From assembly GCF_003334255.1 (NCBI RefSeq), contig NZ_QOWU01000119.1: a stretch of 3,540 nucleotides of DNA; one strand, written 5' to 3'. The stretch's first letter is position 1; each line of letters opens with the position of its first letter. Source of the DNA: Escherichia coli. GTDB lineage: Bacteria; Pseudomonadota; Gammaproteobacteria; Enterobacterales; Enterobacteriaceae. This document shows, one piece after another, positions 369-1,468 of this stretch. The translations under genes and the position numbers were made by a program. The notes beneath the pieces were generated by a model. The model was not told where the DNA came from. It searched no databases and was given only the letters and a program-made list of their open reading frames with translations.

Positions 369-445
369 CCGCCATTAGCTCATCGGGATAGAGCGCCAGC
401 CTTCGAAGCTGGCTGCGCGGGGTTCGAGTCCTCGATGGCGGTCCA
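369..445 (+). tRNA. argN: tRNA-Arg (anticodon UCG; reads CGA/CGG)
   Basis: A 77-nt cloverleaf. Acceptor stem is CCGCCAT/ATGGCGG. D stem is GCTC/GAGC with a GGGATA D-loop (Arg-type A20 context). Anticodon stem is CCAGC/GCTGG with loop CTTCGAA (TCG). T stem is CGGGG/CCTCG with one G-T pair and loop TTCGAGT. Discriminator T and CCA are encoded. It lies 9 nt after the first tRNA. The gene symbol is by analogy with the phage ileZ-argN-argO cluster and is less certain than the tRNA call. Confidence 0.85.
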
Positions 446-1188: not shown

Positions 1189-1328
1189 GGGGCGCTGGAA
1201 AGATATTGTGCTGTGAAGTGTTAAATTCCTCACAATTCAGTAAGTTGACAGTTGCCTGTCAGACTGGGCATTTGTTAAAAAAATTTCGCATGGTGAATCC
1301 CCCTGAGCGGAGGGGCGACTGGTGACGG

Positions 1329-1334
1329 TATAAT
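1329..1334 (+). promoter_or_regulatory. Consensus -10 hexamer TATAAT (candidate promoter for the + strand small transcript)
   Basis: This is a perfect TATAAT. There is no convincing -35 at 17 bp spacing (AGCGGA). A TGGTGA repeat copy abuts it at 1320-1325. The element is supported only by a terminator about 110-130 nt downstream. Confidence 0.3.
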
Positions 1335-1340
1335 CTCTGA

Positions 1341-1462
1341 TTATCAAAACGAGAATGACGCGGGTTTAGTGGCACCGGGCTGAACTCACCGGGAGGCACC
1401 CGGCACCATGTTCATGGTGATACAGAAATGCGGCTTCAGCCCCTCTCCGGAGGGGCTTTCTT
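1341..1462 (+). ncRNA. Candidate small RNA (about 120 nt), 5' end approximate
   Basis: It is bounded by TATAAT (1329-1334) and a strong intrinsic terminator (1439-1462). Internal hairpins are CCGGG-AGGCA-CCCGG (1389-1403) and CACCAT-GTTC-ATGGTG (1404-1419). There is no credible ORF. This is prediction only, with no expression data. Confidence 0.35.
1439..1462 (+). terminator. Rho-independent terminator (+ strand)
   Basis: GCCCCTC-TCCG-GAGGGGC forms a 7-bp GC-rich stem with a 4-nt loop, immediately followed by TTTCTT. The reverse strand has no T-tract, so it is unidirectional. Confidence 0.75.
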
Positions 1463-1468
1463 ATGGAC

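Follow-up and report, generated by a model that had tools for sequence, protein, structure and literature searches.

A prophage STnc100 small RNA gene of Escherichia coli with a predicted pseudoknotted 5′ domain and an exchangeable tail

Introduction

The STnc100 family of small RNAs (sRNAs) is present in multiple copies in enterohaemorrhagic and enteropathogenic Escherichia coli (EHEC and EPEC) and occurs directly after stx2, although no member has a defined target or function. In strain EDL933, transcription was seen for all 11 STnc100 copies predicted by Rfam, a northern blot confirming STnc100_4 (PMC5331693). The copy of prophage Sp5, EcOnc27, was found by Hfq crosslinking and gives bands of ca. 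235 and 247 nt, the latter being destabilised without hfq (PMC4104026); it is the same RNA as sRNA103 of EDL933 and 86-24, situated immediately downstream of stx2B, whose overexpression raises the levels of the espA and fimZ transcripts (PMC5030294, PMC7873438, PMC12711010). Here we analyse a stretch of 3,540 nt from E. coli (assembly GCF_003334255.1, contig NZ_QOWU01000119.1; hereafter, the window) that contains, on the + strand and between a prophage cargo gene and nanS-p, a locus of this family.

More distant relatives are PasD1 and PasD2 from EPEC E2348/69, equivalent to EcOnc13 from Sakai prophage Sp3; a 2026 preprint from the Storz laboratory concludes that they share an ancestor with STnc100 (bioRxiv 10.64898/2026.05.13.724894). 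PasD2 is 172 nt long, starts at position 741157 of NC_011601 (PMC8550237 Table S6) and lies upstream of a sialate esterase gene (PMC8550237, bioRxiv 10.64898/2026.05.13.724894). Both were validated by northern blot in an EPEC study of interactions between RNAs based on ligation and sequencing (RIL-seq), which reports Hfq-dependent stability for Pas sRNAs; in its RNA sequencing (RNA-seq) table, pasD itself does not fall in the hfq mutant (PMC8550237). HnrS (EcOnc10-12) is a different prophage sRNA, of 66 nt.

At least eight Sakai prophages have convergent pairs of sRNA genes at their moron sites, downstream of PR′ (Tree et al., PMC4104026). AsxR and AgvB (RF02703 and RF02702) occupy this same niche, as part of the sRNA dyad of lambdoid moron sites, and are likewise built of a short variable seed on a conserved scaffold (PMC4104026); they differ from STnc100 in being encoded on the opposite strand, in their length of 51–60 nt and in the location of the variable part at the 5′ end.

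Results and Discussion

The locus belongs to the STnc100 family

An earlier note, made from the letters of the window alone, had proposed an RNA of ca. 120 nt on the + strand, starting just downstream of a TATAAT (1329–1334) and ending at a terminator (1439–1462). In an Rfam scan, positions 1259–1468 (+) matched the full length of the RF02076 (STnc100) model (1–206 of 206) with 165.6 bits (E 1.3e-38), for a curated gathering score of 47 bits; therefore, the flagged stretch, 1329–1462, is the 3′ two-thirds of a longer, already catalogued prophage sRNA. The note was right to propose a prophage sRNA of the Hfq-associated EHEC type, non-coding, ended by a terminator and situated between the cargo gene and nanS-p. 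The family is real and known, with members in Rfam and in Hfq crosslinking, RIL-seq, RNA-seq and northern blot experiments, and the locus itself adds nothing new; the useful yield is a corrected anatomy, a pseudoknot, a design with a swappable tail and a promoter reading of variants linked to haemolytic uraemic syndrome (HUS). We consider it highly probable that the locus is a prophage STnc100 sRNA gene composed of an extended −10 promoter, a folded 5′ domain, a variable tail and an intrinsic terminator.

As controls, the copies of Sakai Sp5 and phage 933W scored 207.7 bits with RF02076, the match starting 75 nt after stx2B, and the model matched three sites in Salmonella prophage Fels-1, between Q and the holin gene. 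A fragment of 291 nt spanning the RNA (1230–1520) had matches in 1133 of 5426 complete E. coli genomes, at a median of two places per genome, and among the matches listed there was no RefSeq annotation underneath. For comparative purposes, we assembled 129 copies (88 distinct) from IMG/VR prophage contigs, found by a 26-base pattern, and joined to them the copies of PasD2, Sp3, Sp5, 933W, phage 2851 and Fels-1. A scan of genome contigs (596 Gb) with the 16-mer GCATGGTGAATCCYCC returned chance matches in unrelated phyla, this pattern being too short; among the loci L004–L123 that it yielded, only L009, from a metagenome-assembled genome of Dyella, fits the extended box pattern, and it also looks like chance.

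The note had raised kinship to a named EHEC sRNA as a question for an Rfam search, which assigned the RNA to a named family, STnc100, but gave no hit to AsxR or AgvB in the window at E ≤ 1 (E ≤ 10 for 1440–1720), whereas the Sp5/933W control gave 88.1 bits for AsxR. StxS was set aside by position alone, since its place is between PR′ and the terminator of PR′, upstream of stx and not downstream of a cargo gene. Identity with PasD was likewise rejected, because only the scaffold is common to both RNAs.

Predicted start site and promoter

The 5′ end of PasD2, defined by RNA-seq and northern blot as the G of GCATGG (NC_011601 741157), aligns with G1288 of the window. Comparison of the upstream regions revealed three sequences at fixed distances from the invariant GCATGG: TCACAATTCAG, GTTGACnGTTGYCTG and TTTGTTAAAA. 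The first occupies positions 1230–1240 (+; −58 to −48) and is conserved in most of 43 distinct upstream sequences. The second includes a putative −35-like hexamer, TTGCCT (1252–1257, +), conserved as TTG(C/T)CT at −36 to −31 and separated by 18 nt from the −10. The third, conserved at −17 to −8, contains a putative extended −10, TGT-TAAAAA (1273–1281, +), with the TG at −15/−14 (1273–1274) and TAAAAA at −12 to −7 (1276–1281). The conservation of this extended −10 geometry, together with the PasD2 5′ end on the homologous G, led us to place the start at ca. 1288 and the sRNA, of ca. 175 nt, at 1288–1462 (+), its 3′ end being the intrinsic terminator; we thus infer that transcription starts around G1288 from an extended −10 sigma-70 promoter. 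The boxes TCACAATTCAG and GTTGACAGTTGCCTG (1230–1258, +) are kept in most family members regardless of the sequence further upstream, and may represent a site for a regulator or another promoter. There is also a perfect TTGACA at 1245–1250, which is 7 nt too distant from the −10 to be its −35.

The predicted start lies ca. 40 nt upstream of the TATAAT chosen in the note. This motif is indeed a perfect −10 hexamer situated ca. 105 nt before a good terminator, with hairpins in between. Nevertheless, it occurs once in the 3540 bases, versus 1.32 expected, and at least one copy was found in 150 of 200 shuffled sequences; it has neither a −35 nor a TG, a weakness that the note had itself conceded for the −35, and our promoter scan did not call it. 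Moreover, it is not conserved among homologues, in which the homologous position holds TATGAT or unrelated sequence in other classes, and it forms the arm of a hairpin inside the RNA. A transcript starting there would also lack part of the conserved folded domain described below, because the conserved and co-varying helices P1 and P2 and the pseudoknot need 1288–1324, and the Rfam match extends in full length from 1259. It is thus very improbable that the RNA is the 120-nt transcript of the note; its length would be ca. 175 nt by our comparative model (1288–1462) and 210 nt by the Rfam match (1259–1468).

The folded 5′ domain

By comparative evidence, positions 1288–1411 constitute a compact folded 5′ domain that is almost invariant apart from a swappable insert. 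The domain is closed by helix P1, formed by GCAUGGUG (1288–1295, +) and CACCAUGU (1404–1411, +), with 96.9 % of cells paired and only wobble changes in the E. coli copies; Fels-1 presents a compensatory change (CAGUG/CACUG). Hairpin P2, CCCCU-GAGCGG-AGGGG (1300–1315, +; 1300–1304 with 1311–1315), has 100 % of cells paired and contains a GGA at 1309–1311; the third Fels-1 copy has CCCGU/ACGGG, also compensatory. Hairpin P3b, GGGUUUAGU-GGCACCGG-GCUGAACUC (1362–1387, +; 1362–1370 with 1379–1387), has three pairs changed on both sides, and P4, CCGGG-AGGCA-CCCGG (1389–1403, +; 1389–1393 with 1399–1403), is nearly invariant, with 95.4 % of cells paired and an invariant GGGAGG (1391–1396). Across 26 distinct cores, that of the window included, 94.8 % of the cells of P1, P2, P3b and P4 were paired, versus at most 50 % when the partners were slid, and the window copy forms every one of these pairs, G1288-U1411 being a wobble. 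The insert is occupied in the window by a variable hairpin, P3a, AUAAUC-UCU-GAUUAU (1330–1344, +), which is one of 15 non-homologous middle modules and whose 5′ arm is the TATAAT of the note. The two hairpins drawn in the note between TATAAT and terminator, 1389–1403 and 1404–1419 (CACCAT-GTTC-ATGGTG), are both present; the former corresponds to P4, whereas the latter is specific to this variant, since it rests on a CAUGGUG repeat of the window tail and offers the 3′ strand of P1 a local alternative to 1288–1295, the family-wide partner of 1404–1411.

In every copy, the P3b loop is complementary to the 6–7 nt that directly follow P2, with sequences that differ between classes, which points to a pseudoknot formed in the window by CUGGUG (1319–1324, +) and CACCGG (1373–1378, +), the latter within the P3b loop. 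It is backed by eight co-varying versions, from five E. coli sequence classes and the three Salmonella (Fels-1) copies: CUGGUG/CACCGG in the window, CUGGUG/UACCAG in 933W, AAUGAUCGA/UUGAUCAUU in PasD2, AUCAGC/GCUGAU, AAUGAC/GUCAUU and CUGGCU/AGCCAG in further classes, and UGGUUAU/AUAGCCA, ACCAGUC/GACUGGU and UUGAUCA/UGAUCAA in Fels-1. We scored this pairing by the complementarity within each sequence, with cross-class and shuffled controls, and dropped the MAFFT alignment for these pair counts because differences in loop length put the classes out of register. The mean complementarity was 6.5 within own sequences (minimum 5.5), versus 3.3 between classes and 3.5 with shuffled loops, of which 1.9 % reached a score of 6. 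No such pairing appears in the Rfam consensus structure (cmscan), nor is it mentioned in the 2026 PasD/STnc100 preprint. Single-sequence folding of 1336–1465 was modestly better than that of shuffled sequences (z = −2.26).

The note had found no credible open reading frame (ORF) here, pointing out that the only one with an ATG (1408–1515, 35 aa) runs through both terminators, and we agree. Translation of this frame, by a small-protein or dual-function RNA, could be favored by the GGGAGG at 1391–1396, which resembles a Shine-Dalgarno motif, and the AUG at 1408–1410, both invariant in E. coli copies and 11 nt apart; besides, some of the EDL933 STnc100 copies show ribosome-footprint ratios of up to 3.2, while others show ratios of 0.04–0.24 (PMC5331693). 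Yet these two motifs are base-paired in P4 and P1, respectively, copies share no homology past the AUG, where the sequence is hypervariable, and the terminated RNA would contain no stop codon, the terminator being situated inside the ORF. These features make a coding function hardly credible, and we also rejected a coding reading of the minus-strand ORFs, given the non-homologous tails and the lack of a stop before the terminator.

The variable tail and the exchange of modules

After the invariant CACCAUG, the next 25–30 nt fall into 15 unrelated classes among the 88 unique copies. This hypervariable tail (1412–1437, +, in the window) is probably the seed and the part in contact with Hfq: in EcOnc27, the peak of Hfq crosslinking maps to the tail and terminator, after correcting a 142-nt coordinate shift between genome versions, and the proposed seed of PasD is situated at the same place (PMC8550237). 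The tail is followed by the intrinsic terminator seen in the note, GCCCCTC-TCCG-GAGGGGC-TTTCTT, for which our terminator scan gives a stem of eight pairs at 1438–1457 and a T-rich tail (1438–1462, +); the CCCCTCTCCGGAGGGG stem is common to most members and most copies, including that of the window, end in the same CCCCUCUCCGGAGGGG terminator.

The 15 middle and 15 tail classes were seen in 28 combinations, with one middle type carrying seven different tails, indicating that the modules are exchanged at the invariant junctions. Prophages often carry tandem STnc100 copies, in many E. coli prophages ca. 470–483 nt apart; among eight IMG/VR loci with two matches on the same strand, this was the distance in six, the other two being separated by 267 and 2108 nt. 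Examples of tandem matches to the pattern or the model are those at 8576 and 9059 in L002 and at 12432–14187 in L248. Tandem copies, including the three of Fels-1, each carry their own middle and tail modules.

The fixed position of the element between the late promoter and the lysis genes, its pairing with a convergent terminator, the tandem copies and the coincidence of module junctions with invariant sequence would all suit a folded domain acting mainly in cis on the late operon, or a DNA recombination boundary, for instance as a stabiliser of the 3′ ends of moron mRNAs or, by means of back-to-back terminators, as an insulator of morons. However, the compensatory base changes imply selection on RNA structure and not only on DNA, and homologues accumulate in lysogens as discrete Hfq-bound RNAs whose tails are joined to mRNAs in many RIL-seq chimeras. 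Because the covariation at the RNA level is clear and these chimeras are numerous, we consider such a role improbable.

Origin of the transcript

Several observations weigh against the proposed anatomy of an RNA of ca. 175 nt with its own promoter, a folded domain and a tail acting through Hfq. The T that usually ends a −10 hexamer is missing from TAAAAA; the Rfam model begins 29 nt upstream of the predicted start, its match of 210 nt spanning 1259–1468; and the northern bands of EcOnc27, ca. 235 and 247 nt, exceed the 171 nt predicted for Sp5, so a more upstream start, or processing from the transcript of the upstream gene, is possible for this type of promoter. What is known of expression comes from homologues, namely the EDL933 copies, EcOnc27 and PasD. 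Single-sequence folding of 1288–1465 prefers a pairing between the arms of P2 and of the terminator (−66.8 kcal/mol). A C interrupts the U tract of the terminator (UUUCUU), making it poorly suited to the binding of Hfq. Lastly, no STnc100 member has a known target: the effects of sRNA103 were obtained by overexpression, that on espA appears to be indirect and the pairing with fimZ is only predicted (PMC5030294, PMC7873438). As for the folding, the alternative pairing is preferred because P2 (1299–1316) and the terminator (1438–1457) share CCCCU...GGAGGGG arms, and it is probably incidental, since it is not kept in copies with other terminators, such as those of Sp5 and PasD. We searched the literature for ends of EcOnc27/STnc100 mapped by differential RNA-seq or Term-seq and found none stated.

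The size of the EcOnc27 bands is also what would be expected if the RNA were not, or not only, a primary transcript but the 3′ end of cargo-gene or late-operon transcripts, trimmed by RNase E to an sRNA derived from the 3′ untranslated region (3′ UTR), an origin compatible with the anatomy proposed here. In favor of this origin, the element is always found after a moron gene on the same strand (stx2B, or the TolA-like gene here), and the EcOnc13 probe printed in the Tree 2014 supplement, which has no match in the PasD locus of Sp3, covers sequence upstream of the predicted start of another copy. Conversely, the promoter-like geometry is kept directly upstream of the G whatever lies further up, even in tandem copies without a gene in between, the 5′ end of PasD2, from RNA-seq coverage, falls on the homologous G, and a terminator-like hairpin (1253–1270) plus a T run separates the cargo gene from the RNA. 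On balance, an origin by processing seems rather unlikely, though less so than the cis-acting role. The terminator of the sRNA may also end transcripts coming from the cargo gene, an alternative already put forward in the note.

Comparison with EcOnc27 and PasD

EcOnc27/sRNA103 is the closest studied relative and likewise directly follows a moron gene and precedes nanS-p and the lysis genes. Its sequence is near-identical to that of the window over 1230–1325 and 1389–1410, so that both have the same promoter-like region and the same 5′ domain, and both are partnered by a convergent sRNA, AsxR in Sp5 and one of the EcOnc08/21/42 type in the window. They differ in the middle module (M1 in the window, M2 in EcOnc27) and in the tail and terminator (T2 and T4, respectively), and so they presumably have different targets. 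The gene upstream is also different, coding for a TolA-domain lipoprotein in the window and being stx2AB in the case of EcOnc27.

PasD shares with the window RNA the 5′ box GCAUGGUGAAUCC, P1, P2, P3b and the pseudoknot, as well as a similar length (172–173 nt), and the scaffold was recognizable in PasD2, with a closing helix GCAUGGUG/CGCCAUGC and the pseudoknot strands AAUGAUCGA/UUGAUCAUU. However, column identity is ca. 65 %, with only the 5′ box and scattered scaffold positions aligning, the P4 region of PasD is shortened and PasD falls short of the gathering score of RF02076. Neither the PasD seed, CCUUGUGAGUUCUGG, nor the PasD terminator was found in the window.

Variants of the stx2-linked copy

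The strongest HUS-predictive features among O157 isolates are defined by the absence of two changes after stx2B, a T/C at +90 and the deletion of a T at +103 (PMC12711010). In the stx2-linked STnc100 copy, the former coincides with the T of the TG in the predicted extended −10 and the latter with the discriminator (alignment of L245, 1937–1951, with L247; 1273–1287 in the window). The stx2c phage 2851 shows these two changes relative to Sp5: TTCG for TTTG, by which the TG motif loses its T, and a discriminator shorter by one T before the G. The window carries the stx2a-like form at 1273–1287. The natural allele of the stx2c phage supports our placement of the promoter, and the association with HUS becomes a testable promoter hypothesis, with a possible link to disease severity.

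Possible mode of action

The tail and the U-rich 3′ end would bind Hfq and, as the seed, pair in trans with target RNAs. The folded 5′ domain, in which the first nucleotide is paired, would serve as a conserved scaffold, stabilising the RNA and perhaps offering a docking site to a protein. Prophages would swap middle and tail modules by recombining at the invariant junctions, thereby altering target specificity. In lytic growth, polymerase modified by Q would continue past the terminator and transcribe nanS-p and the lysis genes.

A more speculative proposal, which we regard as rather unlikely, is that the 5′ domain of STnc100/PasD RNAs is a protein-docking scaffold, with CsrA as the leading candidate, or a nuclease-resistant cap, on which the tail is exchanged as a cassette. 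GGA motifs at the edge of the P2 loop (1309–1311) and at the stem/loop edge of P4 (1392–1394) are invariant in E. coli copies, although both are missing in the third copy of Fels-1, a point against CsrA docking. In EPEC, the most abundant CsrA-bound chimera, with 20 % of chimeric reads, is that of PasD2 with the 3′ UTR of yjbJ, and another sRNA, PasE, guides CsrA to its targets (bioRxiv 10.64898/2026.08.12.744399). From the motifs in P2 and P4, this chimera and the PasE precedent, it follows that the scaffold might dock CsrA. The analogy with PasE is functional only: PasE has GGA-containing hairpins and a separate single-stranded seed, but it is unrelated in sequence to the window RNA, is 56 nt long and has the seed at its 5′ end. 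If the proposal were true, tails of 25–30 nt would be the cassettes of a guide-RNA family built on one chassis and directed to different targets. The pseudoknotted scaffold and swappable tail also indicate which parts of the RNA to mutate and which to swap.

Genomic context and the convergent sRNA gene

The flanks of the sRNA gene fit a lambdoid late region, with the end of a DNA methylase gene, two tRNA genes, a gene for a TolA-domain lipoprotein and another for a DUF1737-SASA-DUF6645 esterase of the nanS-p type. The placement is that of STnc100, which in a lambdoid late region follows a moron gene and precedes the lysis genes, and strain 2018-166, 933W, Sp5 and Fels-1 have the same layout. 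The cargo gene (724–1152, +) codes for a lipoprotein-like protein of 142 aa with a TolA C-terminal domain (PF06519, E 6e-23) and, by eye, a Cys-containing signal-like N-terminus; RefSeq names its homologues "tolA". This prophage-borne version of TolA domain III might divert, as a decoy, colicins or filamentous phages that make use of TolA. The tRNA genes are situated at 284–359 and 369–445 (+), one with anticodon CAT, annotated in relatives as tRNA-Ile (ileZ type), and the second of the two a tRNA-Arg with anticodon TCG; argO, the third tRNA gene of Stx phages, is absent from the window.

On the minus strand there is a convergent sRNA gene of the EcOnc08/21/42 type, which would run from ca. 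1649–1661 to 1468, with a terminator at 1496–1475, the seed CCUUGCC at 1503–1497 and a promoter-like site at 1696–1668. Positions 1466–1690 are near-identical, including seed and terminator, to the locus in prophage PP6 of E2348/69 of the RIL-seq sRNA candidate E2348C_1409.E2348C_1408.IGR, an EPEC RNA of 182 nt from the minus strand, with EcOnc08/21/42 as homologues and GGCAAGG as target motif. A scan of 1440–1720 (E ≤ 10) assigned the minus-strand sRNA to no Rfam family, the best match being OmrA-B with 21.8 bits for a cut-off of 40. Given the near-identity to the E2348/69 locus, the usual sRNA dyad is therefore present here, with a partner that differs from the AsxR of Sp5. The genes of the STnc100 RNA and the minus-strand sRNA form the convergent pair usual at moron sites of lambdoid prophages.

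Just upstream of nanS-p there is a terminator-like hairpin, CTGCGCAACTGCGCGG, followed by CCTTTTTCGT (1565–1590, +), which is kept in Sp5 as well as in E2348/69; this hairpin is antisense to the minus-strand sRNA, over its body. In total, the window contains six terminator-like sites, versus 2.5 ± 2.0 expected.

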